Below are positions 1,283 through 27,909 of a stretch of 32,000 nt of DNA, piece by piece; within the stretch, counting starts at the first letter, position 1, and the number at the start of each line of letters is the position of its first letter. The stretch spans positions 2,040,001-2,072,000 of the forward strand of contig NC_008340.1 of the NCBI RefSeq assembly GCF_000014785.1, in the 5' to 3' direction. Made by a program: the position numbers and the translations under genes. Source of the DNA: Alkalilimnicola ehrlichii MLHE-1. GTDB lineage: Bacteria > Pseudomonadota > Gammaproteobacteria > Nitrococcales > Halorhodospiraceae. The notes below the pieces were generated by a model. It was not told where the DNA came from and ran no database searches. It saw only the letters and a program-made list of their open reading frames with translations.

Positions 1283-1303
1283 GCTTTCTGCACCCCAAAA
1301 CGC

Positions 1304-4300: not shown

Positions 4301-4393
4301 GTAGGCTGAGGCATTGCGTTTCTCATAGCCGCCCGCACTGGTCAGGCTGGCTTCTATGGCGGTTTCAAAAGCGAGTTCGGAGTGGCCAGCCAT
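1304..4393 (-). CDS. hsdR: Type I restriction enzyme R subunit (helicase/endonuclease)
   Basis: 1029 aa. Walker A (SAGSGKSNS), DEAH box (VIVDEAHSSQSG) and SF2 helicase layout. Last gene of an hsdM-hsdS-orf-hsdR operon. Confidence 0.9.
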   Translation of the reverse strand: MAGHSELAFETAIEASLTSAGGYEKRNASAYDEALAIFPEDVTGFLQDSQAAKWGQLEALLGEKTRATVLHSLAKELEIKGTLHVLRYGFKCYGKTFRLAHFRPNSGMNPEAAAAYALNRLTVTRQVAFTSVMKKADGPKSTKNRRCIIDVTLSLNGLPVVTAELKNSLTGQRAADAVKQYKQDRDERDLLFAFKKRALVHFAVDPDEAWMTTRLKGKDTVFLPFNRGHDHGAGNPPVENNWKTHYLWDEVLEKDSLMDILQRFMHLEVKERQVKTDKGVRTIRKETMIFPRYHQLDAVRRLVVHARANGSGHNYLVQHSAGSGKSNSIAWLAHRLASLHDAEDQKVFHSVVVVTDRRVLDQQLQNTIYQFEHKTGVVEKIDENTQQLAQALSGGTPIIITTLQKFPFISQALSTLEKKGTGVKISTAGKRFAVIVDEAHSSQSGETASELRGMLNKDGIEAAIAAQLSDEEDDALSDEAKAAILRDSLKRARQPNLSFFAFTATPKFKTKALFDEPGPSGSSPFHEYSMRQAIEEGFIMDVLQNYTTYKRFFGLIKQVENDPEVPRKKAAKALSRYLELHPVNIEQVVSVIVEHFRLYVMSEMGGRAKAMVVTGSRLAAVKYKLAFDRYIKDNGYGGIRSLVAFSGSVEDPDDPGSAYTEVAMNDGLAESELPETFEREDYRVLLVAEKYQTGFDQPLLQTMYVVKRLAGVQAVQTLSRLNRVAPGKARTFVLDFANEEDDIYQSFKPYYEATPVGENADPHQLSELQHKLMGWAIFAPDDVNAFADVWYRSKRDHSASDHRVMNAVLDAVVARFSDREEAEQEEFRGQLTAYRNLYAFLSQIIPYQDSELEKFYAFVRNLLSKLPPPGDGQAFALDDEVALRYFRLQQMTEGSIDLGTGEAYPLKGPTDVGTSGVKEEAVPLSSLVEKLNERFGTDFTEADQLFFDQITASAEENEKIVEAARANNLPNFSAFLERMLDELFIDRMENNEDIFSRVMTDKEFRSAAHEHLAEEIFKRVREEKRTGGG

Positions 4394-4396
4394 GGA

Positions 4397-5008
4397 TCAA
4401 ATCTCCTGTATCGAGGTGTTCTGCAACTCGGCCAGCGCCTGGCCGTGCACCTCGTCAAAATGGTAATAGCGTATGGATGGATCAGCGCGGAGTTGCCGAT
4501 TGGGTTCCAGATAGGCGTCTGGGTTGTCATTCTCGGCAAAGACGAATTTGCGAAGATGAATTCGGCGCTTGTCACCGGTGTAATGCTCGATGGTGCGCTT
4601 GAGGCTGTGGACCCAACAGGCACCCGCCCTGAGCTGAGGGACAATCTTTTCAGCAGTCAAACTCTTGGATTTGAACTCGATACAGTCCGCGTAAAACCTT
4701 TGGCCGTTCACATAGAAAATAACGAAGTCGCAGCGCTTTGACCAAGGCTTAGCTGTATCGTCTAGAAAGTGGAAAAGAGGCGGTTTACTCTTTTTCCGCT
4801 GCAACTCAACCTGATCATGGTCCAACTTGAAAGCCAATCCCGGCCCCGGCAAAAGAAGCTGTATTTTCCTTGTTTTCGCGCGGGTCCCTGTTGGAGGAAA
4901 ATACTTTTCTTTCAGGATGACTTCACCTCCCACGCCATCATGCATCACATATCGACTATTTACATAGGCCTTCAGGTGCTCGAAATAGGTGGAGGCTGCC
5001 AACGTCAT
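4397..5008 (-). CDS. Hypothetical protein with a PD-(D/E)xK-like motif, embedded in the type I R-M operon
   Basis: 203 aa. Its start overlaps the hsdS stop (ATGA at 5005-5008) and its stop is 3 nt from the hsdR start. ...KRCD94FVIFYVNGQRFYADCIE111FK113SKS... fits D-x(n)-ExK on consecutive beta-strand-like segments (codons about 4670-4729). No family recognised. Confidence 0.55.
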   Translation of the reverse strand: MTLAASTYFEHLKAYVNSRYVMHDGVGGEVILKEKYFPPTGTRAKTRKIQLLLPGPGLAFKLDHDQVELQRKKSKPPLFHFLDDTAKPWSKRCDFVIFYVNGQRFYADCIEFKSKSLTAEKIVPQLRAGACWVHSLKRTIEHYTGDKRRIHLRKFVFAENDNPDAYLEPNRQLRADPSIRYYHFDEVHGQALAELQNTSIQEI

Positions 5009-6264
5009 TGCAGACCTCCGATTTGGCCAGTGACGGCAGCGGTAATTAGTGCAGAGCGATATTCTTCTAGCTTCTGGACACTACGCTTTACTTCATCTGC
5101 AGCGAAGCGATTCTCTCGATCTACACGTGAACAATAGTCGGCAATCTCAGTTTGCTCATCTAGAAAGGGAATTGGTAACACAAACGCACCAAGCGCTTCT
5201 CGATTTACTTTAGGCATCGCAACGCGAAGTGACTCAAGCTCGGCATAAGCCGTAAACGCATCAGTTAGAAGAAAATAAAATAAGTACCGACGTTCAAAAT
5301 ACTTCCCGGGGTCAATAGCGTACATATCTGCACTGCAAAGACACACTGAATCAAATAACGCAACCTTTCTGAGTGCAGGGCGAATCTTTGAGTATAGAAC
5401 AGAGCCCTCAGAGCAGAAGTATTTCCCGCTAATTGCTCCCTGTTCCTCGGCACTAGGGACATCGTATAGTCGTCCAGTACCGCTTTCTATATAGTCGGGA
5501 GCAATTAAAGGCATATCTGTATACTCAGGCTCGCGAGGATCGACTTGCCCACTTTGTACTTGGCATCTCCATTTGAATGGAACCAGATCCCAATGCGCAG
5601 GAATATCACCCAGCCAGTCGATGCCGGAGGGTTTCATGGGGGCTTCGGGGTTAAGGCCCTTGGTGACGGCGCGGGTGATCAGGGCCTGGCGCTTTTCCGC
5701 CAGCCGGTCCAACAGGGCGCGCTTTTTCTCGATCAGGCCATCGATGCGGGCGGTCTTCTCATCCAGAAACTGCGCGATGCGGCGCTGGGTTTCGAGGGGT
5801 GGGAGCGGCATTTCGATAGTGACCAGCTCACTAGCGTTAATCGCCGGATAGCTGACCCCGACCGAGCGCGAAACAACCTCCGATACAAACGGCTCAGATT
5901 TCGCGGCCCAACCGAGGTATCCACTATCGACTTCTTCCCTGTCTGGTCGAACAACACAAAAACCTGTCGAAGCAATCAGGTCTGGCGAAGCTTCGTCAAC
6001 CTTGGCAATGGCCCTGAGGTAAGTCCGAACTGTAGAAATCAATATGTCGCCGCTTCGCACTTTACGACGAGCACGAGAGGGAGCCTTCCCGAAAGTAATA
6101 CGCTCTACCTGCTCAACTCCACGAGATAGGGAAACACCTGAGATCTCAACGTAGTCGATCTCGGCCTCTTCATCAGTGCTTTCTGGTAAGACCTCATCAT
6201 TATAGGTAGCTAGGTATTTGAGGCGCTTGCTTGACCATGTCGCTGGAAGTGTTACGTCAATCAT
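5005..6264 (-). CDS. hsdS: Type I R-M specificity subunit
   Basis: 419 aa. Two target-recognition-domain-like halves are separated by a conserved coiled-coil spacer (PPLETQRRIAQFLDEKTARIDGLIEKKRALLDRLAEKRQALITRAVTKGL). The C-terminal repeat of the same type is KLEEYRSALITAAVTGQI. Overlaps hsdM by 4 nt. Confidence 0.9.
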   Translation of the reverse strand: MIDVTLPATWSSKRLKYLATYNDEVLPESTDEEAEIDYVEISGVSLSRGVEQVERITFGKAPSRARRKVRSGDILISTVRTYLRAIAKVDEASPDLIASTGFCVVRPDREEVDSGYLGWAAKSEPFVSEVVSRSVGVSYPAINASELVTIEMPLPPLETQRRIAQFLDEKTARIDGLIEKKRALLDRLAEKRQALITRAVTKGLNPEAPMKPSGIDWLGDIPAHWDLVPFKWRCQVQSGQVDPREPEYTDMPLIAPDYIESGTGRLYDVPSAEEQGAISGKYFCSEGSVLYSKIRPALRKVALFDSVCLCSADMYAIDPGKYFERRYLFYFLLTDAFTAYAELESLRVAMPKVNREALGAFVLPIPFLDEQTEIADYCSRVDRENRFAADEVKRSVQKLEEYRSALITAAVTGQIGGLQ

Positions 6265-8438
6265 CCCACCAATCCCCTTAAAAGCCCGGCAATTTCCCCT
6301 TCCAGTTCGGTAATCTCCTGCTCGATCTCGTCCAGCGGACGCGGTGGCTTGTAGACGTAGAAATGCCGGTTGATCGGGATTTCATAACCCACCTTGGTCT
6401 TGCTGTAGTCCACCCAGGCATCATCCACATGGGGCAGCACCTCGCGGGCCATGTAGGCGTCGATCTCGGCCCGGAAGGCGGTCACCAGCTTGTCATTGGG
6501 TTTGTCCGGGCCGAACTGCATTGGCAGGGGCAGTTGGGTGCCCTCGGGCAAGGGGATGTTCTCGGTGTCGCGCAGTTCGCTGTCAGGCTCCGGTCTGCCC
6601 TTGCTGTCGCGGCAAATTTCGGCATCGGGGTCGCGCTCGCCCAGAGCGTTGAAGATGGCCTTTTTGATCGGTACCGGGAGTTTGAGGCTAGCCACCTTGG
6701 CAGCGGCGTTCAGATCCGCTTCGAAAACGGCGCGGTCGGTGTACTGCCCCTTGGGTGCTAGGCTCGCCAACAGAGCGCGAATCGCCTCCTGCTGCTTTTG
6801 CCCTTCCGCGATCTCCTTGGCAGCCGCAGCCTCATTCTTGCGTTTTTTCGAGGTGGCCAGGTTGGCAAAGGCGGTCTGCTCATCCAGCCGGGCAATGCGC
6901 TCCGGCGAAGCTTCGAAGTTCATGCGCAGGGGGCGCTCCACCGTCACCTTGAGAAAGCCGAACTCGCGGTTCTCGAAAATGCGGGAGACCACACGGGTTT
7001 CGGTGTCGCCGTTGATTCTTACCTCGGCGGTTTCACCGTCCCGGTTGTTACCGTAGAGTCGGGTCAGATCGCGGATCTGGTCTTCGGTGACCTCGTTACG
7101 CTTGTTGTTGAGGCTTTTCTTCATGCGCTGGAAAAAGCGTGTGCCGTCGATTAGTTGCACCTTGCCGCGCCGCTCCGGGGCCTTGCGGTTGGTCACCAGC
7201 CAGACATAGGTGAAAATACCGGTGTTGTAGAAAAGCTGGTCGGGCAGCGCGACGATGGCATCGAGCCAGTCGTTTTCGATAATCCAGCGGCGGATATTCG
7301 ACGGCCCGGAACCGGCATCACCGGAAAATAGCGGCGAGCCATTGAAGACGATGGCGATCTTGGAACCGACGGAGTCGTCATCCCCCTCTTTGTAGGGGTG
7401 CATCTTGGCGATCATGTGCTGCAGGAACAGCAGGGAGCCGTCATTGATGGCGGGCAGGCCGGCGCCGAATCGTCCGGCAAAGCCCATCTCCTTGTGTTCT
7501 TTCTCGACGACGGTTTTCTGGTCTTTCCACTCCACACCAAAGGGCGGATTAGCCAGCAGGTAGTGAAACTGCTTGCCCTCGAAGCCGTCGCGGGTCTTGC
7601 CGTCGCCCAGGGTATCGCCCAGCACGATGCTGCTGGTGTCTTCATCCTTGATCAGCATGTCCGAACAGCAGATGGCCCAGGACTCGTCGTTGTACTCCTG
7701 ACCGAACAGCGCCAAGTTAGCCTGACTGTTCTGGTCGAGGATGAATTTCTCCGATTCCGACAGCATGCCGCCCGTACCGCAGGCCGGGTCGTAAATAGTG
7801 CGGTAGATGCCCGGCGTGTAAACATCCTGTTCGCCGGTGTAGACCAGATTGGCCATCAGGCGGATGACTTCGCGCGGGGTGAAGTGGTCCCCGGCCTCTT
7901 CGTTGGCCTGCTCATTGAAGCGCATCACCAGATGCTCGAACAGGTAGCCCATTTGCAGGTTGTCGATGCGGTCCGGGTGCAGGTCCACTTCTGACATCGC
8001 CTTGACGATGGTAAACAGCCGGTTGCTGGCGTCGAGTTTTTCGATCTGGTCAGTGAATTTAAAACGCTCGAAGATGGCCCGAGCCGTAGGCGAGAAACCG
8101 TTGATATAGGCGACAAGGTTAGGCGCAATGTTCTCCGAATCCCCCAACAATTTCTCGAAGATGAACGGACTGGTGTTGTAGAGAGGGTGGGTTCGGTCAG
8201 GATCGGCCGCCTTGCCCAACAGCTTCTCCATGGCATTTTCCGGCATACCTTGAGCGGACAGCTTTTCGTATTGCTTCAGCACCGCTTCTTTGGTGGGCTC
8301 CAGCACACAATCCAGTCGCCGCAGCACGACCATAGGCAGCATGACCAAGCGGTACTGAGGGGGGCGGTAAGGGCCGCGAAGGCGGTTGGCGATTTCCCAG
8401 ATGTGGCTTTTGAGCTGGTCGTGCAACTGCAAGTTCAT
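6261..8438 (-). CDS. hsdM: Type I R-M N6-adenine DNA methyltransferase subunit (long form, 725 aa)
   Basis: HsdM N-terminal region, AdoMet motif (DPACGTGGML) and catalytic NPPFG (LLANPPFGVEW). A long C-terminal extension is present. AAGGA lies upstream of the ATG. Confidence 0.9.
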   Translation of the reverse strand: MNLQLHDQLKSHIWEIANRLRGPYRPPQYRLVMLPMVVLRRLDCVLEPTKEAVLKQYEKLSAQGMPENAMEKLLGKAADPDRTHPLYNTSPFIFEKLLGDSENIAPNLVAYINGFSPTARAIFERFKFTDQIEKLDASNRLFTIVKAMSEVDLHPDRIDNLQMGYLFEHLVMRFNEQANEEAGDHFTPREVIRLMANLVYTGEQDVYTPGIYRTIYDPACGTGGMLSESEKFILDQNSQANLALFGQEYNDESWAICCSDMLIKDEDTSSIVLGDTLGDGKTRDGFEGKQFHYLLANPPFGVEWKDQKTVVEKEHKEMGFAGRFGAGLPAINDGSLLFLQHMIAKMHPYKEGDDDSVGSKIAIVFNGSPLFSGDAGSGPSNIRRWIIENDWLDAIVALPDQLFYNTGIFTYVWLVTNRKAPERRGKVQLIDGTRFFQRMKKSLNNKRNEVTEDQIRDLTRLYGNNRDGETAEVRINGDTETRVVSRIFENREFGFLKVTVERPLRMNFEASPERIARLDEQTAFANLATSKKRKNEAAAAKEIAEGQKQQEAIRALLASLAPKGQYTDRAVFEADLNAAAKVASLKLPVPIKKAIFNALGERDPDAEICRDSKGRPEPDSELRDTENIPLPEGTQLPLPMQFGPDKPNDKLVTAFRAEIDAYMAREVLPHVDDAWVDYSKTKVGYEIPINRHFYVYKPPRPLDEIEQEITELEGEIAGLLRGLVG

Positions 8439-8513
8439 TTAGTTGATTATCCTTTTGATATTAGTGCGTGTTTCTGTAGATAATGTTCTCAGGTGAAGCG
8501 GTATTGTGAGTGC

Positions 8514-8603
8514 GTATAACGCAAAGGTAACCGGCGCCGGAGCGCCAGCGGGGGGAACCAAAAGCGGAACGCTTTTGGCGTCCGGTTGACCGCTTGGTTA
8601 GAG
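8514..8603 (-). other. Integron attC site (90 bp) closing the DUF867 cassette
   Basis: Plus strand: GTATAAC-gcaaaGGTAACCGGCGCC...GGCGtCCGGTTgACCgcttg-GTTAGAG. T and G are unpaired on the arm next to GTTAGAG. A perfect 9-bp inner hairpin (CCAAAAGCG-gaa-CGCTTTTGG) is present. The ORF stop codon (8598-8600) lies inside the R'' box. Confidence 0.85.
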
Positions 8604-9212
8604 CAGGCCTGCACGAATCAGCCCCTGACGAACGGCATCGACAAATTTATAGAACACGTCAGTCTGGCGTGCTCTTCCAGCTTTATTGAGAGACTCAAAG
8701 AGAGTGCTTCTCAAGCCGCGGGAGAGCTCTAATTGAACACCAGCTCCGCTCGTTCCGCGATTACAGATATTCGCTCGTGATGTCCCTTGAAGATTCGGGT
8801 TTTCATGCTTGCGCACGGTAAAACCGGCCTCTGCAAGTGCTTCGCTTATTTGAGAGCGCAGCAGCGCATCGGCACCGCCAGCAAATACCGTTTCCCCTGG
8901 GCTGTTTTCACCATGTATTGCTACAGCAGTGCGAGACCGCGCGACTACTTCGACACAACGAGGTTCATCGAAATTCGTACTGGTTATATGCAAGTCCCGG
9001 TTCTTGGCTACCTTAGTACCCTCAAAAATTGCGAAACTAAACTGCTCGCCTGCAATAGCAAAGGCCAACTCTGATGTGCCTGGCTCAATTGCACCACCAT
9101 GCGGGGCAATCACAGCTACCGCTGCTTCGTCTCGCACCGCCACCTGAACGCGAAAATCGCGCCCTTCAGTTTGCTCAGCTTTAAGTGCTTTAAAATTTGA
9201 GTATCTGTCCAT
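8598..9212 (-). CDS. Poly-gamma-glutamate hydrolase family (DUF867 / PghP-like) protein
   Basis: About 204 aa. APHGGAIEPGTSE and ...AVAIHGE... match the remembered HGG-IE-GT and downstream His zinc-ligand pattern of the family. The ATG at 9212 is preferred over the TTG at 9215. Confidence 0.65.
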   Translation of the reverse strand: MDRYSNFKALKAEQTEGRDFRVQVAVRDEAAVAVIAPHGGAIEPGTSELAFAIAGEQFSFAIFEGTKVAKNRDLHITSTNFDEPRCVEVVARSRTAVAIHGENSPGETVFAGGADALLRSQISEALAEAGFTVRKHENPNLQGTSRANICNRGTSGAGVQLELSRGLRSTLFESLNKAGRARQTDVFYKFVDAVRQGLIRAGLL

Positions 9213-9219
9213 CAATTCG

Positions 9220-9288
9220 CTCTAACGCTCAACTAAGCCGCTGGGCGGAGCGTAGCGTAGCCCAGTCGGCTTGAGTGTTATGTTAGCG
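9220..9288 (-). other. Integron attC site (69 bp) closing the membrane-protein cassette
   Basis: Plus strand: CTCTAAC-GCTCAActaAGCCGcTGGG-cggagcgtagcgtag-CCCAgtCGGCTTGAGt-gttat-GTTAGCG. The minus-strand R'' CGCTAAC is the exact complement of GTTAGCG at the cassette start (10209-10203). A tandem partial box GTTAT/GTTAGCG leaves the exact R'' register ambiguous. Confidence 0.75.
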
Positions 9289-10188
9289 ATTCGACATAAC
9301 ACGATAGAACTCTCTCACTGCACTTGCGAACGCGGAGCGTTCCCTAAGCAGTCGCACATACGTCGGCAGATTAAATCCGATAACGGGAGAGAGCAGATTG
9401 CCACGAATGCTGCCGGCCAGCATGGATATTGGCCCGCTCAACTTCTCCGCACAGTCAATAAATTGTTGGCATTCCTGTACGTTCACTTGATTATGGAACT
9501 CTTGGATGTAATTGGGATTATTCACATCGACTATTGGTACATGAATCCACATCTTTCTCCCGATCTCCTCAAGAGCCTGCACTGCCTCATCAAAGGCATC
9601 CGGCATTCCCCAGCCCGAACATAGTATTGTGTAGTTCCTTCCCTTTATTCGATGAACTTGTACCGTGGCCTGCGACAGTTGCTCTCTCGCTGATAGGAAT
9701 TCTCTAGTCTGGCTCAGGGCCCAGTCCACCTTAAATTTTGCCTCACGAGCGTTACTCCCTCTTTGGACCTCATTCACCGCTTCAACGAGGGACTCTACGA
9801 AGAGCTGCGCATCAGTTACAAGTTGGTTGGTTGTTCCAAAAAAATGCTCGATTTCGCCCGCTGTCTGGGTTCTAAGCTGCGCCTGTTGCTGCTGCTTCCA
9901 GCTCACGGTTGCCGTATGAAATGCCACCACAAAGCCACCAAGAGTTACCGCTGCGGTGGCAAGTCCTACTTTGTAAGCCTCCGGCTGTCCGTTGAACCAC
10001 AATACCAACTCGCCAGGGGAAAATGGCTCTACACCGAGCACAGTCTCCGCCCCTACGTATAGTGATATCGCCAGCGCTAGTGCACCCAATGCAGTGCCGA
10101 AAAGAAAGTGCACCAACATCCCAATCGAAATGAACGCGTAGAACGCTGGAACGGCCACTTGAGGTGGAATGCGCTGGAATATCTTCAT
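9283..10188 (-). CDS. Hypothetical membrane protein (2-3 N-terminal TM helices plus a helical soluble domain)
   Basis: The ORF track gives 9283-10266. I prefer the ATG at 10188 (MKIFQRIPPQ...), which is preceded by GGGAG. The hydrophobic stretches are AVPAFYAFISIGMLVHFLFGTALGALALAISLYVGA and VGLATAAVTLGGFVVAFHTATV. No family recognised. Confidence 0.55.
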   Translation of the reverse strand: MKIFQRIPPQVAVPAFYAFISIGMLVHFLFGTALGALALAISLYVGAETVLGVEPFSPGELVLWFNGQPEAYKVGLATAAVTLGGFVVAFHTATVSWKQQQQAQLRTQTAGEIEHFFGTTNQLVTDAQLFVESLVEAVNEVQRGSNAREAKFKVDWALSQTREFLSAREQLSQATVQVHRIKGRNYTILCSGWGMPDAFDEAVQALEEIGRKMWIHVPIVDVNNPNYIQEFHNQVNVQECQQFIDCAEKLSGPISMLAGSIRGNLLSPVIGFNLPTYVRLLRERSAFASAVREFYRVMSNR

Positions 10189-10202
10189 ACGTCTCCCAGA
10201 CT

Positions 10203-10274
10203 CGCTAACGCCGCGCTCTGCGGCAAATTTGGAGCGCAGCGGAGAATTTGTCCGACAGCAGCGCATTGTTAGGG
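10203..10274 (-). other. Integron attC site (72 bp) closing the CHAT-like cassette
   Basis: Plus strand: CGCTAAC-gccGCGCTCTGCGGCAAATT-tggagcgcagcggag-AATTTGtCCGaCAGcAGCGCatt-GTTAGGG. It forms a long imperfect stem with unpaired bases on the arm next to GTTAGGG. The minus-strand R'' CCCTAAC is the exact complement of GTTAGGG at the cassette start (11148-11142). Confidence 0.85.
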
Positions 10275-10277
10275 ATT

Positions 10278-11126
10278 TTACGTGGCAACAATATCATCCT
10301 TAGATAAAGGGAAGCGCGCATCATTTTCTGGAAAATCAGCAATGAAGAAGAACCTTTTTCTGAGTTTATCAAAGTGCTGATCTTCAGATGCAAGACCTTT
10401 CTTTACTTGCTGTCTGGCCCATGCCACACCACGTCTCTTTACGTCGGGGTTTTTCATCGCCTCAGAAACAAGGCGTTCTACCCTTTCTTTCTTCCCTTTC
10501 CCGACACAGTGACTTTTATAGTAGGCTCGGTAAGCCCTTGAAAATAGTCCAGCAGCGCTTAAAAAATGATAGGTTCGATCTTGATGCTCTGCCCCTTCAT
10601 TAAGGATACCTATGGCTTTATCACCATCGAGGTCGAAAAAGAAGGACTCATAAAACCGACCGAAATTATCCTGAATATGCCCAGCAGTTACTTCTACCTC
10701 CGGACCAATTATTGCCCAGAAAGGAGCCGCATCTAGCCTTGTAGATGCTTTTATTAAATGGGCACCATTGCAGGCAGCAATTACAATCATCAGATTTAGC
10801 TTAGTCGCTCGGTTAATCTCAATAAGTATCTCTCTGATTTCATCCCATTCAACCAGTTCTCCGCTAGCGGTTCCCAAGCCGTCTTCACACCCATGACACT
10901 CAAAGTGGATCATTGGATATATTCCGCTCAAAGCCTCATTTCGTATTTTTTCTAATACGTCAAACAGCTCGGACTTAGTTATTGGCTCAGCGAATTCGAC
11001 GACAAGGTCTTGCTGTACCTGCTTAGCCTTGTCCAGCTGATTGTCGAAGAGATTTTTCCCGGTTCTAAGCTCACCTGATGGTAAAGATTCTATAACCCAC
11101 AGCTTATTGAAAATATTTCCGGACAT
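10278..11126 (-). CDS. Putative clan-CD (caspase/CHAT-like) cysteine peptidase, single-gene cassette
   Basis: 282 aa. A hydrophobic strand followed by His-Gly (PMIHFEC-H78-G) and, 41 residues later, a hydrophobic strand followed by Cys (LMIVIAA-C119-NGA). This is the order and context of the caspase-hemoglobinase-fold catalytic dyad. H78 codon 10893-10895; C119 codon 10770-10772. Motif-level call only. Confidence 0.5.
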   Translation of the reverse strand: MSGNIFNKLWVIESLPSGELRTGKNLFDNQLDKAKQVQQDLVVEFAEPITKSELFDVLEKIRNEALSGIYPMIHFECHGCEDGLGTASGELVEWDEIREILIEINRATKLNLMIVIAACNGAHLIKASTRLDAAPFWAIIGPEVEVTAGHIQDNFGRFYESFFFDLDGDKAIGILNEGAEHQDRTYHFLSAAGLFSRAYRAYYKSHCVGKGKKERVERLVSEAMKNPDVKRRGVAWARQQVKKGLASEDQHFDKLRKRFFFIADFPENDARFPLSKDDIVAT

Positions 11127-11141
11127 GACGATTCCATTTAT

Positions 11142-11217
11142 CCCTAACGCGCAGCGTAACCGGTCGGATTTGGAGCGTCAGCGGAAAAGCCGATCCGTGT
11201 TGACGCTGTTGTTGTGC
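11142..11217 (-). other. Integron attC site (76 bp) closing the DUF262-HEPN cassette
   Basis: Plus strand: CCCTAAC-gcgCAGCGTAACCGGTCGG-atttggagcgtcagcggaaaag-CCGAtCCGtGTTgACGCTGtt-GTTGTGC. The 16-nt arm pairs perfectly once T, T and G on the other arm are flipped out. The minus-strand R'' GCACAAC is the exact complement of GTTGTGC at the cassette start (13051-13045). Confidence 0.85.
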
Positions 11218-11260
11218 TAAGCTGACGGATCGAATTCGTCTCGCCGCCACTCCTTATCCA

Positions 11261-11893
11261 TTACTCTGCACAATTCATAATATTATTTTGGAAACAATCC
11301 GATAAAACCAGAAGCATCCTTTGCGTAAACGTGACGTGCTCCCTGATATCTATCGTCGACAAATCCGGGTCATCGCCATGCGCAATACTATGGCGCCACC
11401 TCACAAGCTCGTTGTCTATTTTAAGGCGCCACCGCAAGAATGGAGAGCAATCGAACCCCATGACTTCGAAGTTGTCTTTTAACTTTCTGAAATCTAGATT
11501 TGATCTAGAAGAAACCACTTCCTTATCAAAATTCAAAAAGTCCCCTCTTGTCACTTCCTGAAATCGCAAGATAAACTCTACTGCTGCAAGCTGAGAATGA
11601 TTTCTATCTCTGAGCCTTTGAAAATCAGACTGGAGCAACCCAATCAGCATTGGCCAAGAGACATCTGAAACCTTCTTTCTAGCCTCCCTCAAAAAATCTA
11701 TGTAAAGAGATACGCAATCGTTATAAAACCCTTCCCAGTGAGAATAGGATAAAACGATAACTGCCTTCGACTGGACCCCAAATTGCGCAATAGAGCCTAG
11801 CTCATTCATTCGGACTTTTATCTCTGACAGTTCCTTGGCTCGGCGCAAGCGGATCGAATCCAAGTCTGAGAGAAATTGAAAAACATCGCTCAT
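11261..11893 (-). CDS. HEPN-domain protein (MAE_28990/MAE_18760-like), predicted RNase effector
   Basis: About 210 aa. Rx4H motif W-R-H-S-I-A-H-G (codons 11378-11395) near the C-terminus, plus the upstream YSHWEGF element typical of this HEPN family. The ATG at 11893 overlaps the DUF262 TGA (ATGA). The ORF track starts at 11908. Confidence 0.7.
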   Translation of the reverse strand: MSDVFQFLSDLDSIRLRRAKELSEIKVRMNELGSIAQFGVQSKAVIVLSYSHWEGFYNDCVSLYIDFLREARKKVSDVSWPMLIGLLQSDFQRLRDRNHSQLAAVEFILRFQEVTRGDFLNFDKEVVSSRSNLDFRKLKDNFEVMGFDCSPFLRWRLKIDNELVRWRHSIAHGDDPDLSTIDIREHVTFTQRMLLVLSDCFQNNIMNCAE

Positions 11894-12999
11894 TGTGGAG
11901 AAAACCAATTCTCACCAAATGGTACGGTTCTTTGGATCCGAGTAGTCCCTCGCAAGCCTGACGCACTCAACTCGGCGACATCTCTTTCTCGCCAGAACCG
12001 ATCGACGCGCTCACGCAAAAAACCATCCGGGTCTTCCAAGTCCTGAATTTTTTCTTTGTTTCTGGCGACCCCTACCAATATCGCTTCCAGTGCACGCAGA
12101 GAAAATCTTTTGGCTATTCCTTGATAAGCCTCGTCATGAGGAATCAAGGCATCGCCCCCGAATAAGCTATGCAAGCTATTGACGGCCCATTCCACCGTAT
12201 GGATCACATCATTCGGATCTTGATCCACGATAATTCGCGCAATACTTCGGTCGAGGAACTCCTGAACATCAGCATCTGAGCCAAAATCTTCGACTGTATG
12301 AACAATAGCACGAACCGCATATTCAACATCTTTTTGTTTTAAATTCTGCTCTTCCGTAATTTTAAAAATATTTATAAATTCTTCGCTTCTTGCCAGATTC
12401 CTTATTCGAGCGGTAGCATCTGCATTTCCAAGCACCATTGAACAAGTGCGGACTTCCTGCTCATTAGCGTACTCGCCACCCCGATTCAATCGCTGAAACA
12501 AATCAAATTTCGTTTTTGCGTCACTTGGGTGTTTAAGTATCTGGAAATCCAAGCGTGACCGACGAAAGAAAAGCTGAAGAGATTTTTCAAGAACTTGAGC
12601 ACCTCCATCTCCTCCTTCTGTTGGCCACACGACACCATCTAAGGACGGAAGATAGGTTGCAGTTGTCAGAGTAGAAGGCGGCATCTTCTCTGCAGGATTA
12701 TCTGGTTCGCGCAAAACGCCCATGAACTCGAGCACTGTGGAGATACGTTGTAACCCGTCTATCAGCTCCCATGTTCCATCTGGCTTTTCATATGCGAAAG
12801 CCGGGGGCACAGGGATTCCAATCAAAATCGATTCGATAAAAGCCGTCTTCTTTTCAGGAGACCAACGAAATAATCTCTGAAAATCAGGGATAATATCTAG
12901 CTCCTCCGCCGCATACATGGAAGCGATCTCCCCAATGGAGATTTGCAAACTATCGGTAACAACTGATCGCTTTGCGGTTTCTAGTTCATTTCTTAACAT
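11890..12999 (-). CDS. DUF262 (ParB/Srx-fold, GmrSD-N-like) protein lacking a DUF1524/HNH nuclease domain
   Basis: DFQRLFRW, IDGLQR and FQRLNRGG motifs match the DUF262 signature (QR..W, DGQQR, LN.GG). The ATG at 12999 is preceded by GAGGG at 7-nt spacing. The ORF could extend to 13017. Confidence 0.75.
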   Translation of the reverse strand: MLRNELETAKRSVVTDSLQISIGEIASMYAAEELDIIPDFQRLFRWSPEKKTAFIESILIGIPVPPAFAYEKPDGTWELIDGLQRISTVLEFMGVLREPDNPAEKMPPSTLTTATYLPSLDGVVWPTEGGDGGAQVLEKSLQLFFRRSRLDFQILKHPSDAKTKFDLFQRLNRGGEYANEQEVRTCSMVLGNADATARIRNLARSEEFINIFKITEEQNLKQKDVEYAVRAIVHTVEDFGSDADVQEFLDRSIARIIVDQDPNDVIHTVEWAVNSLHSLFGGDALIPHDEAYQGIAKRFSLRALEAILVGVARNKEKIQDLEDPDGFLRERVDRFWRERDVAELSASGLRGTTRIQRTVPFGENWFSPQ

Positions 13000-13044
13000 T
13001 AAGCAGCCCTCAAGCATGGAGAATCATAAGCAGAAATTTCATCT

Positions 13045-13063
13045 GCACAACGCCTAGTTAACC
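13045..13063 (-). other. attI-like simple site at the head of the cassette array
   Basis: Minus strand: GGTTAAC-taggc-G|TTGTGC. The GTTGTGC core is cognate to the R'' of the first cassette's attC. A related 19-bp site (plus strand GTTCAAC-gcctt-GTTGCAC) lies at 13140-13158. Overlaps the last codons of the IS91 tnpA ORF. Confidence 0.5.
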
Positions 13064-14343
13064 GGCCCGCATCGAGGCAAATAAAAATGCCGATCGCCCT
13101 CATTCACCTCGGACCTCCTCGAAGGCACTAGCGGGTCCGGTTCAACGCCTTGTTGCACACTGCCCGAAGCCTTCGGAGGCGACCCACTTCTTATTAGGGA
13201 ATTTTGAATCCGGTGGCGACTCGGGGGAAGCGTGAATCCCCGGATCAGCTCGGCACCGCAAGCGGGACAGCACAGGGCGTCGCTATGGCCAAGCATCTCC
13301 AGGTACGCCTGCCAGGTCTGCTTCTTCGGCTCCACTTCGGGCATAGGCGCCCCCATTTGTTCTCGGCAAGCCATTCGCTTGGCACGGCAGGTGTGGGCAT
13401 ACAGACCAACGTGGCGGACGGTGTGCTGACCCGGCTCCGGGACATGCCACAGGATCTGTTCCATGAATCGCTCCACCGCCACACGCCGCAGTTTCCGTCG
13501 ACCATCCCGGTGGTCATGGTAACGGAATTGAACCTGGCCTTCCCCCAACGACTTGATCCGGGTGTTTGTGATGGGTCCGCCGCGCACGTAGCGAGACAGG
13601 TACGCAGCGACTCCTCGTCCATGTGTATAGCGGCCCTGCAAACGGACATTCCATTCTTTCTTCGCAGTGGCCTTGAGCCAGTAATCCACGGTCGGATGAT
13701 CGCCACGGGGCGCTTTCAGTCGGCCAGTATCCAGATCATGGCGCAGACGGGAGAGTAGTTTGCCCCGGAACACGCGCTTCACCACGGCCGCAGGCAGCAG
13801 AAAGTCACCCTTCACCGCTCGCCACTGTCCACCCGTCGTCAATCCACCCCCACTGATCAAGCAGTGAACATGGGGGTGGGCGTTAAGGGTTCGACCCCAC
13901 GTGTGCAGGGCCATCACAATGCCGGGGACCGCCCCTAGGTGACGATCTTGCGCAAGCAGTTGGATGAGGGTGTCCCGACTGGCATCGAATAGCGCGGCCA
14001 CGAAGGACCGGCGGTTGTACCGCCACAGGGGGATCAATTCATGGGGCACGGTAAAGATAGCGTGGAAATGATCGCAAGGCAGCAGGCGGCCTCGTTCACG
14101 CTCCATCCACTGTGCCTTGGCACGCTCCGCACATTGCGGGCAGCTACGATGCCGGCACGAGTGGTACTGCACGCGGCGGTGGTGGCCATGGGGACAACAC
14201 TGCTCGTGGCCCCCCAGCGCTTCCGTCCGGCAATTCATAATCGATTCTGCCGCTTTGAGCTGCGGGAGCGGAAAACAATGATGTTTACGAAGCCCATCAA
14301 AATGCTCCAGAAATACGTCCTGAATGGTCGGCTTCCTTGCCAT
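13054..14343 (-). CDS. tnpA: IS91-family (HUH, Y2) rolling-circle transposase; element ends not defined
   Basis: 429 aa. N-terminal Cys/His zinc-binding region (CCPHGHHRRVQYHSCRHRSCPQC), HUH motif (HPHVHCLISGGG), YxxxY pair (YLSRY) and C-terminal CPACG. The last approximately 55 aa look non-conserved and run over the attI-like sites. Confidence 0.85.
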   Translation of the reverse strand: MARKPTIQDVFLEHFDGLRKHHCFPLPQLKAAESIMNCRTEALGGHEQCCPHGHHRRVQYHSCRHRSCPQCAERAKAQWMERERGRLLPCDHFHAIFTVPHELIPLWRYNRRSFVAALFDASRDTLIQLLAQDRHLGAVPGIVMALHTWGRTLNAHPHVHCLISGGGLTTGGQWRAVKGDFLLPAAVVKRVFRGKLLSRLRHDLDTGRLKAPRGDHPTVDYWLKATAKKEWNVRLQGRYTHGRGVAAYLSRYVRGGPITNTRIKSLGEGQVQFRYHDHRDGRRKLRRVAVERFMEQILWHVPEPGQHTVRHVGLYAHTCRAKRMACREQMGAPMPEVEPKKQTWQAYLEMLGHSDALCCPACGAELIRGFTLPPSRHRIQNSLIRSGSPPKASGSVQQGVEPDPLVPSRRSEVNEGDRHFYLPRCGPVN

Positions 14344-14590
14344 TGATTGAGCCTCCTGTACGGCGCTCCATGCCGTATATTACAGACATTGCAACGCGGC
14401 ATGTCTTCGCCAACTAACTGAAAAATCGCAACATCTGCCGCGAAGCGGCTTTGTGCAACAGTTGATTCTACTGCGTCTGTAGAGGCGGTGATATGCAGAC
14501 GCCGCATGTCACACCCGGGATACTTGATATCGAACCAGTCGGTGGCGCATGCTTATCGTGCATAGTCATGGACTGACGGAGTAAGGAATC

Positions 14591-15979
14591 ATGGTTGATC
14601 CAAGCCGCAAAGATGCCCGTGCCCGGTTCTGGGATCGTTACATCCAGGCTCTCCGAAAGCAAGGCGTGAAGCCACCCTTCGACCGATGGCACGTACGTCG
14701 GGCGGAGGAGTTCATCAAGGCGCACCCTGATCAAAGGCTTCGCGAGTTGGGCCCTGATGGCGTGCAAAGCTACCTGCGACGGAAGGGACACGCCGGTAAT
14801 CTCAAGGCCTGGCAGTTCCAGCAAGTGGTTCGTGCTATACAGACGCTGTATAGCACGGCTAACATAGCATGGGCTGCGAGGTTCGACTGGCAGTATTGGA
14901 TGGATGCCGCCCGAACGCTCGAGCCTGAACACGTTTCTACGGCCCGGGACACCCCAGCGCCAACTCCGGTACGGCTTGCCGAACGTGTTGCTGACACTCG
15001 TCTGGCACACGTGGTACACGCGCACCCCGCGCTTTTTGAGGCTTTTTCTGAAACAGTCACCAGCAGAGGCTTGGCGATCAGCACCGAGAAAACCTACCTG
15101 GCGTGGACCTGCCGGTTCATTGTGTTTCTGCAGTCGAAGCCTGTGGAAAGCGCGGACGAGGCGGATGTTCAACAATTTCTCAGTCAGTTGGTCACACAGC
15201 GCAATGTAGCCGCCAGCACCCAGAGCCAGGCTCTGAACGCTTTGGTCTTCTTCTTCCGGTACGTTCTGCAGCGACCGCTTGGCGAACTCCAGGCTATTGA
15301 GAGGTCAAAACGGCCCAGGCGCCTTCCTGTGGTTCTCTCTCGCAATGAGGTCAAGGCGCTGTTGAGTGAAATGCACGGTGTTCACCATTTGCTGGCCTCA
15401 TTGCTTTATGGTTCCGGCATGCGGGTCATGGAAGCACTACGATTGCGCGTCAAAGATATAGATTTCGAGCGGCGGGCAATCACGGTGAGATCCGGCAAAG
15501 GCGATAAGGATCGCGTGGTACCCCTTCCCGAATCCACGATAGCGCCGCTCCAGAACCACTTGCGGCAGGTGAAGGCCATTCACGAGGGAGACCTGGCCGA
15601 TGGGTACGGTGAAGCCTCCCTCCCCCATGCCCTGGCCCGGAAGTACCGCAATGCCGGGAAGGAATGGCATTGGCAGTATGTGTTTCCCAGTGCCCGGGTA
15701 GCGGTCGATCCCCGATCAGGGGCGATCCGTCGACATCATCTTCATGAAACCGCTGTCCAGCGTGCGGTAAAACGGGCGGTGAGAGCCTCCAGAATACCGA
15801 AACAGGCCAGTTGCCACACCTTGCGGCACAGTTTTGCCACGCACCTGCTGGAGCGCGGCCAGGATATCCGAACCGTGCAAGAGCTCCTGGGCCACGCGGA
15901 TGTATCGACGACCATGATCTACACGCATGTAATGAGCAAAGGTGGCGTCCCTGCGGCGAGCCCGTTGGACGGGCTTTAG
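14591..15979 (+). CDS. intI: Integron integrase (IntI-type tyrosine recombinase) with an approximately 130-aa N-terminal extension
   Basis: 462 aa. It aligns by eye with IntI1 across the N-terminal SAM-like domain, box I ([27 protein letters not shown]), the IntI-specific insertion ([21 protein letters not shown]...RRHHLHE), [28 protein letters not shown] and the tail GG..ASPLDGL. AAGGA lies 4 nt upstream of the ATG. Confidence 0.85.
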
Positions 15980-16293
15980 GACCGCCCCGGAGGGTCCTGG
16001 CCCAGAAAGCGGGCACGCTACCGCCAGTACGACATTGGGGGGCCCCCTGCCGTAGTCTCTATAGCCAGCTCAAGGCATCAGCGATCCGACAATGCCCAAG
16101 TGTTCAAAGCTACCGGCGACCGGTCACCCTGGTGACTTCCGGCAGTCCGAGCACTGCATCACATCCTGGGCGTTTTTACGCATGGTCGCCTCCGCAGCGC
16201 TCCAGTTGCAAGTCCGCCCCGGCATCCCCACCTTTGCCCCAGCCCCCTCCACCGCTAAAATGGCGGCCCGCTTCCCCAACCTGCCGTGACTGC

Positions 16294-19200
16294 ATGCCCG
16301 AGAAACACGCCTCACCGCTGACACCGCCCCTCCCCGCCAAGGCCGGCAACCGCGAGCACTGGTACGGCCTGCACGGGGCTACCGGCGCGCTGGCCCTGGC
16401 CCAGGCGGCCCGGGCCCATGACGGCCTGGTGGTGGCGGTCACCGACAGCCCCCAGCAGGCGGCGCGGCTGGATACGGAGTTGCGCTTCTTCCTCGGCGAT
16501 CACGCCCGGGGCGAGACGCCGGTGTTCAGCTTCCCGGACTGGGAGACCCTGCCCTACGACGTCTTCTCACCCCACCAGGACATCATCTCCGAGCGGCTGG
16601 CCGCGCTCTACCGCCTGCCGCGCACCCGGGGCGGCGTGCTGATCGTGCCGGTGAACACGCTGATGCAGCGCCTGGCCCCGGTGAGCTGGCTGGAGGGCCA
16701 GGGCCTGATGCTGGGGGTGGGCGACCGGCTGGACCTGGACGCCATGCGCGAGCGGCTGGAGCAGGCCGGCTACCGCTGCGTCTCCGAGGTGGGCGAGCAC
16801 GGCGAGTTCGCGGTGCGCGGCGCCCTGCTCGACCTTTTCCCCATGGGGGCCACACAGCCGGTGCGCATCGACCTGTTCGACGACGAGGTGGAGACCCTGC
16901 GCCACTTCGACCCGGACACCCAGCGCACCACCGAGAAGATCGACCGGGTGGAGCTGCTGCCGGCGCGGGAGTTCCCCACCGACGAGGCGGGCATCACCCA
17001 GTTCCGCGGGGCGTGGCGCGCCGCCTTCGAGGGTGACCCCTCGCGCAGCCTGGTCTACCGGGAGGTGAGCGCCGGCCACCTGCCGGCGGGCATCGAGTAC
17101 TACCTGCCGCTCTTTTTCGAGGAGACGGCCACCCTGTTCGACTACCTGCCCAAGGGCGCCCTGGTGGCCCGCCTGGGCGAGTCGGACACCCAGGCCGACA
17201 CCTACTACACCCAGGTGCGCAACCGCTACGAGCAGCGCCGCCACGACCTGGAGCGGCCGCTGCTGGCACCGGAACGGCTGTTCCTGAGCCCCGACGACCT
17301 GCGCGAGCGGTTCAACACCCTGCCCCAGGTGGTGCTGCACGCCGACACCCCGGCGCCGGAGGCCCCGCGCCCCCGCGAAGTGGTTTTCGAAACCGAGCCG
17401 CTGCCCGACCTGCGCAACCGCCCCCAGGCGGACAACCCGCTGGAGCGACTCACCAGTTACCTCTCCGACTACACCGGCCGGGTGCTCTTCATTGCCGAAA
17501 CCACCGGCCACCGCGAGGCGCTGCTGGAGCGGCTGCAGAAGCACCGCATCCGCCCCCAGGCGTGCGACTGGGAGGGGTTCGTCACCGGTGACATGCCCAT
17601 GGGCGTGGCCGTGGCCCCGGTGGAGCACGGCGCCCAGGTGAATCAGCCCGCCATGGCGCTGATCACCGAGGACGCCATCTACGGCGACCGGGCCCAGCAG
17701 CGGCGCCGGCGCCGCGCCGGGGCGGTGCGCGACCCCGAGACCATCATCCGCGACCTGACCGACCTGGCCATCGGTGCCCCGGTGGTGCACGAGGACCACG
17801 GCGTGGGCCGCTACCTGGGGCTGCAGACCCTGGAGGCCGGCGGGCTGACCACCGAGTTCCTCACCCTGGAGTACGCCAAGGGCGACAAGCTCTACGTGCC
17901 GGTGGCCTCGCTGCATCTGATCTCCCGCTACACCGGCGCCGAGGGCGACGCGGTGCCCGTGCACCAGTTGGGCAGCGACAAGTGGGAGAAGGCCAAGAAG
18001 CGCGCCGCCAAACGCGCCCGGGACGCCGCCGCCGAGTTGCTGGATATCTACGCCCGCCGCGCCGCCCGCGAGGGCCATGCCTACGAGTGGCGGGACGAGG
18101 ACTACCAGGCCTTCGCCGATGCCTTCCCCTTCGAGGAGACCCCGGACCAGGAGAGCGCCATCGCCGCCGTGGAGGCGGACATGCGCTCGTCCCGCCCCAT
18201 GGACCGGGTGGTCTGCGGCGACGTGGGCTTCGGCAAGACCGAGGTGGCCATGCGCGCCGCCTTCATGGGCATCCAGGACGGCCGCCAGGTGGCGGTGATG
18301 GTGCCCACCACCCTGCTGGCCCAACAGCACTTCCAGAACTTCCGCGATCGCTTCTCGGACTGGCCGGTGCGCGTGGAGGTGCTCTCGCGCTTTCGCAGCA
18401 CCAAGGACACCAACGCGGTGCTGCGCGACCTGGCCGACGGCAAGGTGGATATCGTCATCGGCACCCACAAGCTGCTGCAGGACTCGGTCAAGTACAAGGA
18501 CCTGGGGCTGGTGATCATCGACGAGGAGCACCGCTTCGGCGTCCGCCAGAAGGAGAAGCTGAAGAAGCTGCGCGCCGAGGTGGACATCCTCACCCTGACC
18601 GCGACGCCCATCCCGCGCACGCTCAACATGTCCCTGGCCGGTATCCGCGACCTGTCCATCATCGCCACCCCGCCGGCCCGCCGCCTGGCGGTGAAAACCT
18701 TCGTCAACCAGTGGGACCCGGCCATCATCCAGGAGGCCTGCCAGCGCGAGCTCAAGCGCGGCGGGCAGATCTACTTCCTGCACAACGACCTGGACTCCAT
18801 CGACCGCATTGCCCGGGAGCTGGAAGAGCTGGTGCCGGACGCCCGGGTGGACGTGGCCCACGGCCAGATGCCGGAGCGCGACCTGGAGCGGGTGATGCTC
18901 GACTTCTACCACCAGCGCTTCAACATCCTGGTCTGCTCCACCATCATCGAGTCCGGCATCGACGTGCCCACTGCCAACACCATCCTGATCAACCGCGCCG
19001 ACAAGCTGGGCCTTGCCCAACTGCACCAGCTGCGCGGCCGGGTGGGCCGCTCCCACCACCGGGCCTACGCCTACCTGATCGCGCCGCCGGAGAAGGCCAT
19101 GACGGCGGACGCCAAGAAGCGCCTGGAGGCCATCTCCAACCTGGAGGACCTGGGCGTGGGCTTCGCCCTGGCCAGCCACGACCTGGAGATCCGCGGCGCC

Positions 19201-19794
19201 GGCGAGCTGCTGGGCGAGGAGCAGAGCGGGCAGATCAGCGAGGTGGGCTTCAACCTCTACACCGAGCTGCTGGACCGGGCGGTCAAGGCGCTGCAGAGCG
19301 GCGAGGAGCCGGCGTTGGATGAGCCCATGCACCGTGGCGCCGAGGTGGATCTGCGCATCCCGGCGCTGATGCCGGAGGACTACCTGCCCGACGTGCACAC
19401 CCGGCTAGTGATGTACAAGCGCATCGCCAACGCCCGCACGGAGGCGGAGCTGGACGAGCTGCAGGTGGAGATGATCGACCGCTTCGGCCTGCTGCCGGAC
19501 GCCACCCGCAACCTGTTCCGCGTTACCGCCCTCAAGCTGCGCGCCGACGCCCTGGGCATCGAGAAGGTGGAGGGGCTGGCCTCCGGCATTACCCTGCACT
19601 TTGGCAGCAAGCCGAAGATCGACCCGGAGGCGCTGATCTCGCTGATCCAGTCCAGCCCGGAGACCTACCGGCTGCAGGGTCAGGAGAAGCTGCAGTACCG
19701 CAAGCACCTGCCGGAGGCGGAGGACCGGATCCGCGCCGTGGACGAGCTGCTGCGGGCGCTGCGACCTTCCGCTCGGGAGACCGCCGGCGCCTGA
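16294..19794 (+). CDS. mfd: Transcription-repair coupling factor
   Basis: About 1166 aa from MPEKHASPLTPPLPAKAG (compare E. coli MPEQYRYTLPVKAG). Walker A (GDVGFGKTEV) and DEEH (IIDEEHRFG) are present, with UvrB-homology and TRG regions. The ORF-track start at 15811 is an upstream read-through of the open frame. Confidence 0.93.
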   Translation: MPEKHASPLTPPLPAKAGNREHWYGLHGATGALALAQAARAHDGLVVAVTDSPQQAARLDTELRFFLGDHARGETPVFSFPDWETLPYDVFSPHQDIISERLAALYRLPRTRGGVLIVPVNTLMQRLAPVSWLEGQGLMLGVGDRLDLDAMRERLEQAGYRCVSEVGEHGEFAVRGALLDLFPMGATQPVRIDLFDDEVETLRHFDPDTQRTTEKIDRVELLPAREFPTDEAGITQFRGAWRAAFEGDPSRSLVYREVSAGHLPAGIEYYLPLFFEETATLFDYLPKGALVARLGESDTQADTYYTQVRNRYEQRRHDLERPLLAPERLFLSPDDLRERFNTLPQVVLHADTPAPEAPRPREVVFETEPLPDLRNRPQADNPLERLTSYLSDYTGRVLFIAETTGHREALLERLQKHRIRPQACDWEGFVTGDMPMGVAVAPVEHGAQVNQPAMALITEDAIYGDRAQQRRRRRAGAVRDPETIIRDLTDLAIGAPVVHEDHGVGRYLGLQTLEAGGLTTEFLTLEYAKGDKLYVPVASLHLISRYTGAEGDAVPVHQLGSDKWEKAKKRAAKRARDAAAELLDIYARRAAREGHAYEWRDEDYQAFADAFPFEETPDQESAIAAVEADMRSSRPMDRVVCGDVGFGKTEVAMRAAFMGIQDGRQVAVMVPTTLLAQQHFQNFRDRFSDWPVRVEVLSRFRSTKDTNAVLRDLADGKVDIVIGTHKLLQDSVKYKDLGLVIIDEEHRFGVRQKEKLKKLRAEVDILTLTATPIPRTLNMSLAGIRDLSIIATPPARRLAVKTFVNQWDPAIIQEACQRELKRGGQIYFLHNDLDSIDRIARELEELVPDARVDVAHGQMPERDLERVMLDFYHQRFNILVCSTIIESGIDVPTANTILINRADKLGLAQLHQLRGRVGRSHHRAYAYLIAPPEKAMTADAKKRLEAISNLEDLGVGFALASHDLEIRGAGELLGEEQSGQISEVGFNLYTELLDRAVKALQSGEEPALDEPMHRGAEVDLRIPALMPEDYLPDVHTRLVMYKRIANARTEAELDELQVEMIDRFGLLPDATRNLFRVTALKLRADALGIEKVEGLASGITLHFGSKPKIDPEALISLIQSSPETYRLQGQEKLQYRKHLPEAEDRIRAVDELLRALRPSARETAGA

Positions 19795-19872
19795 GGGGGC
19801 AACACCCCGGTGCTTATGTCATAGTATTCGCGAAAAGCCCACCCTACCCACCACGGATTGAGCCACGGACGC

Positions 19873-20541: not shown

Positions 20542-20676
20542 CCCGGCCCACGGGGTAAGCACCGGAATGCCCGCCGGTGCGCCGCCCGCACACCGATCCG
20601 TCATTTTTTTGACGCCCTCAGCGCGGTACCGAATCCGCCCTGTGCGACCGCTCGGAGCGCGTTATCATGGAGGGAA

Positions 20677-22436: not shown

Positions 22437-22444
22437 CCGCGCAA

Positions 22445-27905: not shown

Positions 27906-27909
27906 ACCG

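Follow-up and report, generated by a model that had tools for sequence, protein, structure and literature searches.

We analysed a 32,000-nucleotide stretch of the Alkalilimnicola ehrlichii MLHE-1 chromosome (NC_008340.1, positions 2,040,001 to 2,072,000), referred to here as the window; coordinates are those of the window unless a locus is named. Our subject is a small gene for a caspase-like protein. The coding sequence (10278..11126, minus strand) begins with ATG and specifies 282 amino acids. Residues 1-190 are caspase/CHAT-like (clan CD) and residues 191-282 are basic and all-helical. Judged by its relatives, this open reading frame (ORF) is a real gene, because there are 91 homologues in a database clustered at 90% identity and 3,253 cluster representatives in a library clustered at 50% identity. 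The 91 homologues (E<=1e-3) range in identity from 95% down to 28%. The 3,253 representatives were retrieved by a profile search at E<=1e-3, and 1,162 of them at E<=1e-30. The product is a cytoplasmic protein of a large and unnamed clan-CD family.

A single-gene cassette of a chromosomal integron

The gene fills a complete single-gene integron cassette of 940 bp (10209..11148, minus strand), a block common to other genomes. The cassette opens with a 22-nt 5' leader (11127..11148, minus strand), which reads TTAGGGATAAATGGAATCGTC and is followed by the ATG. The leader starts where the preceding core, G|TTAGGG, recombines, and the DNA shared with other genomes begins there as well (11148-11150). 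This core (GTTAGGG, 11149-11143) belongs to the attC of the preceding cassette (11143..11214, minus strand), which encodes DUF262 and HEPN proteins, and forms the 5' junction of the target cassette. At the opposite end is the cassette's own attC (10203..10274, minus strand). The site consists of CCCTAAC (10274-10268), an imperfect palindrome with bulges, and GTTAGCG (10209-10203); the cassette ends at G10209. Both cores of this site, RYYYAAC-like and GTTRRRY-like, are one base off the strict consensus. When folded as single-stranded DNA, the bottom strand of the site forms one hairpin with three bulges (-18.8 kcal/mol, z -2.8).

The intI gene (14591..15979, plus strand) is divergent from the array. 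It matches TIGR02249 with a score of 448 bits (cut-off 265) and the Pfam families Phage_integrase and SAM_4; its real start is probably near 15035. On the minus strand, attC-like bulged hairpins with YAAC/GTTR cores occur at 11214-11145, 10271-10206, 9280-9223, 8588-8528 and 1279-1225. There are five consecutive co-oriented units, each with such a hairpin 3' of it. No σ70-like promoter was found on the minus strand between 9000 and 14700. On these sequence features, the gene and its surroundings are almost certainly a promoterless cassette of a chromosomal integron.

The same block is found in Methylonatrum kenyense (window 11149-10201, 96% identity), Marinomonas primoryensis (window 11148-10207, 95% identity) and Cobetia amphilecti (window 11141-10206, 87% identity). 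In every case the flanks are unrelated, and the only DNA common to the window and these three genomes is the cassette unit. Identity breaks off at the GTT recombination points, with unrelated DNA beyond them, which defines 10209-11148, with its one gene, as the mobile unit. The alignments indicate that the cassette moved recently between different orders of Gammaproteobacteria. A preliminary description of this DNA had proposed a stand-alone mobile cassette at 10278-11148. The intI gene, the attC sites and the 940-bp block in three other genomes bear out the first part of that proposal. Of the proposed bounds, the upper one is the exact cassette boundary. The lower one is the last base of the stop codon, omits the cassette's own attC, and has to be corrected.

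A further copy was noticed in Vreelandella alkaliphila (locus L091, 8977-9843). This block is 97% identical and has the same 5' cassette boundary, and identity ends at window position 10284, before the stop codon. The Vreelandella alkaliphila copy has a different C-terminal end (293 amino acids) and has lost the attC.

The G+C content of the target cassette is 46%, compared with about 69% for the host. The array as a whole has a G+C content of 45-60%, and intI adjoins the chromosomal core genes mfd, lysS and prfB (68-72%). Clearly, the cassettes are foreign to this high-G+C host. When positions 8000-13000 were set against 16000-32000, values were 45-53% for the small cassettes, 52-60% for the restriction-modification unit described below, and 65-76% for core genes (mfd, a histidine kinase gene, lysS, prfB and fliK).

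Fold, active-site residues and C-terminal domain

We built an AlphaFold2 model of the protein on an alignment of 39 sequences. The model has a predicted local distance difference test score (pLDDT) of 88.7 and a predicted template modelling score of 0.84. Its strands (8-14, 42-46, 71-80, 113-117, 138-142 and 186-190), with helices between them, have the caspase topology. The model was compared with the PDB using Foldseek. The top match was to the CHAT domain in 8tl0, an activated filament of SAVED-CHAT (E 1.8e-7), with a template modelling score of about 0.5 over about 210 aligned columns. CED-3, caspases-3/6/7/8/9/11 and MALT1 came next. There were 134 matches at E<=1e-3, and the best 50 of these 134 were all CHAT, caspase or paracaspase entries. 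In a library of viral structures, Foldseek matched caspase, metacaspase and clostripain proteins. Thus, residues 1-190 are predicted to adopt the caspase-haemoglobinase (clan CD) fold, with a conserved His-Gly/Cys dyad. The preliminary description had made its assignment hang on this fold, and the AlphaFold2 model, with 8tl0 as its best match, agrees.

Translation of the ORF gives the motifs K8-LWVIESL15, Y70-PMIHFEC-H78-G79 and L112-MIVIAA-C119-N-G121. These are the segments from which a His-Cys protein had first been recognised (KLWVIESL, MIHFEC-H78-G and MIVIAA-C119-NG), and the distance of 41 residues from H78 to C119 is also as described. In the model, H78-G79 closes strand 71-80 and C119 comes after strand 113-117. 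A His-Gly pair after the third strand and a Cys after the fourth is the layout with which caspases, CHAT proteases, legumain and gingipains cleave peptide bonds.

None of the 39 aligned sequences, which extend down to 26% identity, departs from H78, G79 or C119. A larger set comprised 287 non-identical members, with a median identity to the query of 33% and a minimum of 24%. In this set, C119 is present in 287/287 sequences, H78 and P71 each in 286/287, and G79 and N105 each in 284/287. Along the protein, variability is lowest in the two active-site strands. Residues H78, G79 and C119 hardly ever vary, as expected if selection maintains catalysis. The conservation of H78 and C119 among homologues, which the preliminary description had named as the other point to check, is therefore as it anticipated.

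We also used hhalign to compare the protein with legumain and caspase-3. In these non-significant alignments (E 0.41 for legumain), H78-G79 and C119 align with H148-G149 and C189 of legumain and with H121-G122 and C163 of caspase-3. With regard to the S1 pocket, position 21 is K or R in just 63% of family members, and is paired with caspase-3 R64 only in the non-significant hhalign alignment.

Searches of Pfam gave a match to Peptidase_C13 (PF01650; legumain, clan CD) over residues 72-127 (E 0.018, 15.0 bits). The gathering threshold of this family is 22.8 bits, which leaves the window protein outside it. A weak Peptidase_C13 signal was also seen for 32 of the 39 homologues, with a best E of 1.4e-5. 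For CHAT (PF12770), the window protein had no match and just 3/39 homologues did (best E 0.11). For Peptidase_C14 (PF00656; caspases, metacaspases and orthocaspases), there was no match to the window protein at E<=10, and the family is absent from those listed for the 39 homologues. Scores under every Pfam peptidase threshold could be read as a sign of a pseudo-protease or scaffold that has the caspase fold without catalysis. Conversely, H78, G79 and C119 are kept almost without exception in 287 sequences whose median identity is 33%. We regard a pseudo-protease as highly improbable. The model and the conserved residues make it probable that the protein is an active clan-CD cysteine protease.

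The protein represents a new clan-CD family of stand-alone architecture, carried here as an integron cassette, which lies outside Pfam CHAT, C13 and C14 by the thresholds of those families. Literature searches found no description of this protease family. In the library clustered at 50% identity, members are nearly all 275-300 amino acids long (~285) and match from end to end. PHROG 38219, whose function is not assigned, matches at E 3e-17. The longer members P0124, P0126, P0195 and P0151 have N-terminal extensions with no recognisable domains. One more, P0085, carries an unrelated molybdopterin-binding domain and is most likely a fused or mis-joined gene call. Hence, we dropped domain fusions as hints to function.

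The caspase-type fold runs as far as strand 186-190. This leaves residues 191-282, about 92 amino acids, as the unassigned C-terminal part. The preliminary description had given about 130 amino acids for this region, and the model shortens it. When modelled alone, residues 191-282 form a bundle of short helices (pLDDT 91.6). A Foldseek search of the PDB with this isolated domain found no structural match (best E 8.4). The two parts of the protein differ in charge. The isoelectric point is 10.0 for the C-terminal domain and 4.7 for the protease domain, and the family medians are 9.5 and 5.3, respectively. The C-terminal domain is also the more variable, with a mean pairwise identity of 28%, compared with 35% for the protease domain.

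Two distant plasmid homologues (L090 568-1452 and L089 3968-4858) have sub-threshold matches to HMG_box_2 at residues 200-249, with about 20 bits against a cut-off of 22.4. One of the two carries the PGAP label 'HMG-box domain-containing protein'. The window protein has no HMG-box match. We rejected an HMG-box identity for the C-terminal domain, given just two sub-threshold matches, none in the window protein, and an empty Foldseek search. The HMG_box_2 matches are a weak lead to nucleic-acid binding by the C-terminal domain.

The division in charge raises the idea of a self-processing toxin, in which autocleavage would free the basic C-terminal domain to act on membrane or nucleic acid. The HMG_box_2 matches in the plasmid homologues are in line with such a target, and protease-released latent effectors are a known theme (PMC12642450). 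Conversely, the window protein lacks the HMG-box match and its isolated domain has no structural match. No conserved cleavage motif between the domains was identified, and the full-length model packs the C-terminal helices onto the protease domain with high confidence. Hence, a self-processing toxin is distinctly unlikely.

The rest of the array and the setting of the family

The cassette preceding the protease gene has two genes (11145-13017, minus strand). The first (13017-11890) encodes a DUF262/GmrSD_N protein that matches the PADLOC models NsnA (E 1.5e-47) and PD-T4-2_A (E 1.5e-29). It overlaps the second (11908-11261), which encodes a RiboL-PSP HEPN protein. We rejected these proteins as partners of the protease; their cassette is a separate one, which ends at attC 11214-11145, and they are not conserved beside the family elsewhere.

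On the other side of the protease gene is a cassette for a membrane protein (9223-10188, minus strand), with its own attC at 9280-9223. The ORF call of 327 amino acids begins within the attC of the protease cassette. The start is probably ATG 10188, preceded by GGGAGA, which gives 301 amino acids. There was no match to this protein in Pfam, NCBIfam, PADLOC or PHROGs. We also rejected it as a gasdermin-like substrate of the protease. It has its own attC, is absent beside the protease in Methylonatrum, Marinomonas, Cobetia and Vreelandella, and clusters with no neighbour elsewhere.

The next cassette (8528-9215, minus strand) encodes a protein of the poly-gamma-glutamate hydrolase family (Pfam E 4.9e-68; PHROG 4175), a family that is common in phages. 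It is followed by a complete type I restriction-modification operon (1225-8588, minus strand), consisting of hsdM (8438-6261), hsdS (6264-5005), a gene for 203 amino acids (5008-4397) and hsdR (4393-1304). This operon lies between the attC-like hairpins 8588-8528 and 1279-1225 and looks like one unusually large cassette, with four genes in 7.3 kb. Between intI and the first cassette is an IS91-family transposase gene (13054-14343, minus strand; NF033538, 383 bits), next to the interval 14344-15035. The IS91 element may cut the array off from attI and the Pc promoter, and so silence or immobilise it.

We examined about 75 loci of the protease family, in which neighbouring genes were called ad hoc as longest ORFs. 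Neighbours differ on both sides across these loci. The 653 neighbour proteins encoded within 5 kb were clustered all against all, and each family was confined to 4 loci or fewer. Among the 121 nearest neighbours, scanned with Pfam and PADLOC, each was confined to 3 or fewer. Thus, no neighbour gene is conserved across the about 75 loci, and the earlier view that the protein has no obvious partner holds for the family. An attC-like hairpin lies downstream of the gene in 6/68 family loci, compared with 7/400 random windows, and mainly in closer relatives. With hairpins in just 6/68 loci, we rejected the notion that all family members are integron cassettes; on hairpin occurrence, only the closer relatives appear to be. 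One member (L093 8001-8882) lies within a Mu-like prophage, between a gene for a 1,521-residue Kelch/TIG protein and the portal gene. Others are on Klebsiella IncFIB plasmids of about 110 kb, near repB, and on a 153-kb Yersinia pseudotuberculosis plasmid (L088 4968-5846; L089 3968-4861). Some family loci are near genes for SIR2-HerA, Mrr, Drt6 or C5-methylase.

In two distant loci (L001 1556-5160 and L004 6996-7931), a gene resembling TIR or nucleoside deoxyribosyltransferase (NDT) genes is 76-134 bp downstream of the protease homologue. One such gene, with SIR2-HerA after it, weakly matches Nuc_deoxyrib_tr (E 3.7e-4); the other weakly matches a CAP12/Pycsar TIR (E 7e-4). No TIR family is among the Pfam families listed for the 121 nearest neighbours. 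The two arrangements could be due to chance in defence islands, or could hint at signalling-linked relatives.

These genes bear on the idea that the protease is an orphan effector. It would be switched on by a second messenger from an unlinked Thoeris TIR, cyclic-oligonucleotide-based anti-phage signalling system (CBASS) or type III CRISPR system, with the C-terminal domain as ligand sensor, a mechanism like that put forward for the caspase of type IV Thoeris. The two weak TIR-like or NDT-like neighbours would fit, as would the best structural match, which is the CHAT domain of a SAVED-CHAT activated by cyclic oligoadenylate (cOA). Set against this, no TIR, cyclase or Cas10 gene is conserved beside the family in the about 75 loci. 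The gene is transferred singly between unrelated hosts, and an effector that relies on an unlinked signal generator would usually be useless after such transfer. In addition, the basic helical bundle at the C-terminus is unlike SAVED, SLOG, Macro or any PDB fold, and the protein lacks the PF00656 match of the Thoeris caspase family. An orphan effector is therefore unlikely.

Possible function and relation to known systems

Since the gene is transferred singly and lacks a conserved neighbour, its product must work autonomously. A gene that enters unrelated hosts alone, and would be read through from upstream cassettes, should have a product that does no harm before it is triggered, or that is directed specifically at foreign proteins. 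Integron cassettes are reservoirs of small defence systems (bioRxiv 10.1101/2024.07.02.601719; 10.64898/2026.03.17.712381). Since the array holds NsnA with HEPN and type I restriction-modification genes, and integrons act as defence stores, we favour a protease directed against phages or mobile elements. The best explanation overall would be an autonomous, trigger-activated protease of this kind, to which we give an even chance. The chance that the cassette protease has a role in defence we put at even or slightly below.

Our proposal is as follows. The protein would be a latent protease, restrained by its C-terminal domain or sensing through it. Invasion by a phage or mobile element would trigger cleavage of host proteins, invader proteins or both. 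Cleavage would then stop the infection, so that a single gene provides an abortive-infection or exclusion function. We infer catalytic activity, latency, C-terminal regulation and an anti-phage role for this protein. If one part of the protein regulates or senses, the C-terminal domain is the most obvious choice. A more specific and rather doubtful version is that one protein of 282 amino acids both senses infection with the basic C-terminal domain, perhaps through binding of a phage protein or nucleic acid, and responds with the protease. Needing no TIR, CRISPR, STAND or gasdermin partner, it would be the smallest self-contained caspase-type immune module known, exchanged among bacteria in an integron cassette.

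Several observations weigh against a defence role. A sensor or regulator role for the C-terminal domain is conjecture, as that domain has no structural match. No PADLOC (2023) or NCBIfam model matches the window protein, and searches of PDB sequences with the single sequence and with a profile gave nothing relevant. A tblastn search of 50,697 phage records with the window protein had no match. Owing to the IS91 element that lies between intI and the array, this copy of the cassette may not be expressed. Finally, ordinary or unknown genes make up most of the 121 nearest neighbours, with a minority for defence, and one family locus lies between housekeeping operons.

The last two facts would suit an accessory protease with no part in defence. 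Such an enzyme might serve protein processing or turnover, or stress adaptation, or might be a moron that aids its carrier element. Relatives near plasmid replication genes and within the Mu-like prophage would agree with an accessory role, and most integron cassettes are of unknown and diverse function (10.64898/2026.03.17.712381). Conversely, a patchy horizontal distribution, in the company of restriction-modification, DUF262-HEPN, SIR2-HerA, Mrr and Drt6 genes, is typical of conflict genes. Furthermore, those known bacterial cytoplasmic caspase/CHAT-type proteases that have assigned roles are immune effectors. We consider an accessory protease outside defence possible, with roughly one chance in five.

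The closest structural counterparts of the protein are the type III CRISPR-associated SAVED-CHAT (8tl0) and TPR-CHAT/Csx29 of Craspase. All share a caspase-type fold, a His/Cys dyad and a place in the bacterial cytoplasm, in an immune context that is putative for the window protein. Conversely, SAVED and TPR sensors are absent from the window protein, and its gene has no CRISPR or cOA generator nearby. It has 282 amino acids, whereas SAVED-CHAT and Csx29 have about 480-700, and its basic helical C-terminal domain is confined to the family.

Legumain belongs to Peptidase_C13, the only Pfam family with a consistent weak signal. The H-G...A-C motif is shared and the spacing of 41 residues is identical. 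Legumains are secreted or lysosomal enzymes of eukaryotes. Their C-terminal prodomain differs from the C-terminal domain of the window protein, and the Pfam score is below threshold.

A plausible working model, by analogy, is PsCaspase of type IV Thoeris. This executioner protease is promiscuous and aborts infection (Rousset et al., bioRxiv 10.1101/2024.10.24.620036). It is a PF00656 protein, and its gene always has a TIR gene as partner, whose product makes N7-cADPR (bioRxiv 10.1101/2024.10.24.620036). The window gene, unlike that of PsCaspase, has no PF00656 match and no TIR partner, and moves alone. Membership of type IV Thoeris was rejected on similar grounds, there being no adjacent TIR gene (the neighbours are separate cassettes) and no C14 signal.

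Lit, encoded by the e14 element of Escherichia coli, is a single-gene abortive-infection protease. It is triggered by a phage product, cleaves EF-Tu and is a zinc metalloprotease. Thus, Lit is a functional analogue, being a latent protease from a single gene of a mobile element, but its fold is unrelated to that of the window protein.

The vehicle is the one used by defence integron cassettes, including BRiCs and the cassettes of sedentary chromosomal integrons. These are also short and promoterless, have an attC and one or two genes, are shuffled from integron to integron, and accumulate beside other defence cassettes (10.64898/2026.03.17.712381). In two papers on integron-borne defence (10.1101/2024.07.02.601719 and 10.64898/2026.03.17.712381), the terms protease, peptidase, CHAT and caspase are not mentioned.

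Bacterial immunity is now known to use caspase-like proteases as effectors. The characterised examples retrieved here, which are gasdermin systems, Craspase, SAVED-CHAT and type IV Thoeris, each depend on a separate sensor or signal generator. The protease family described here is set apart, with about 3,250 clusters, no Pfam, NCBIfam or PADLOC model, and members that always stand alone, in this case on a mobile cassette of 940 bp. If the gene serves in defence, it would show that a single small mobile gene suffices for caspase-type immunity. Proteases would also become a class of the integron defence repertoire, and the family would provide a simple system in which to study latency and triggering of a caspase-fold enzyme.

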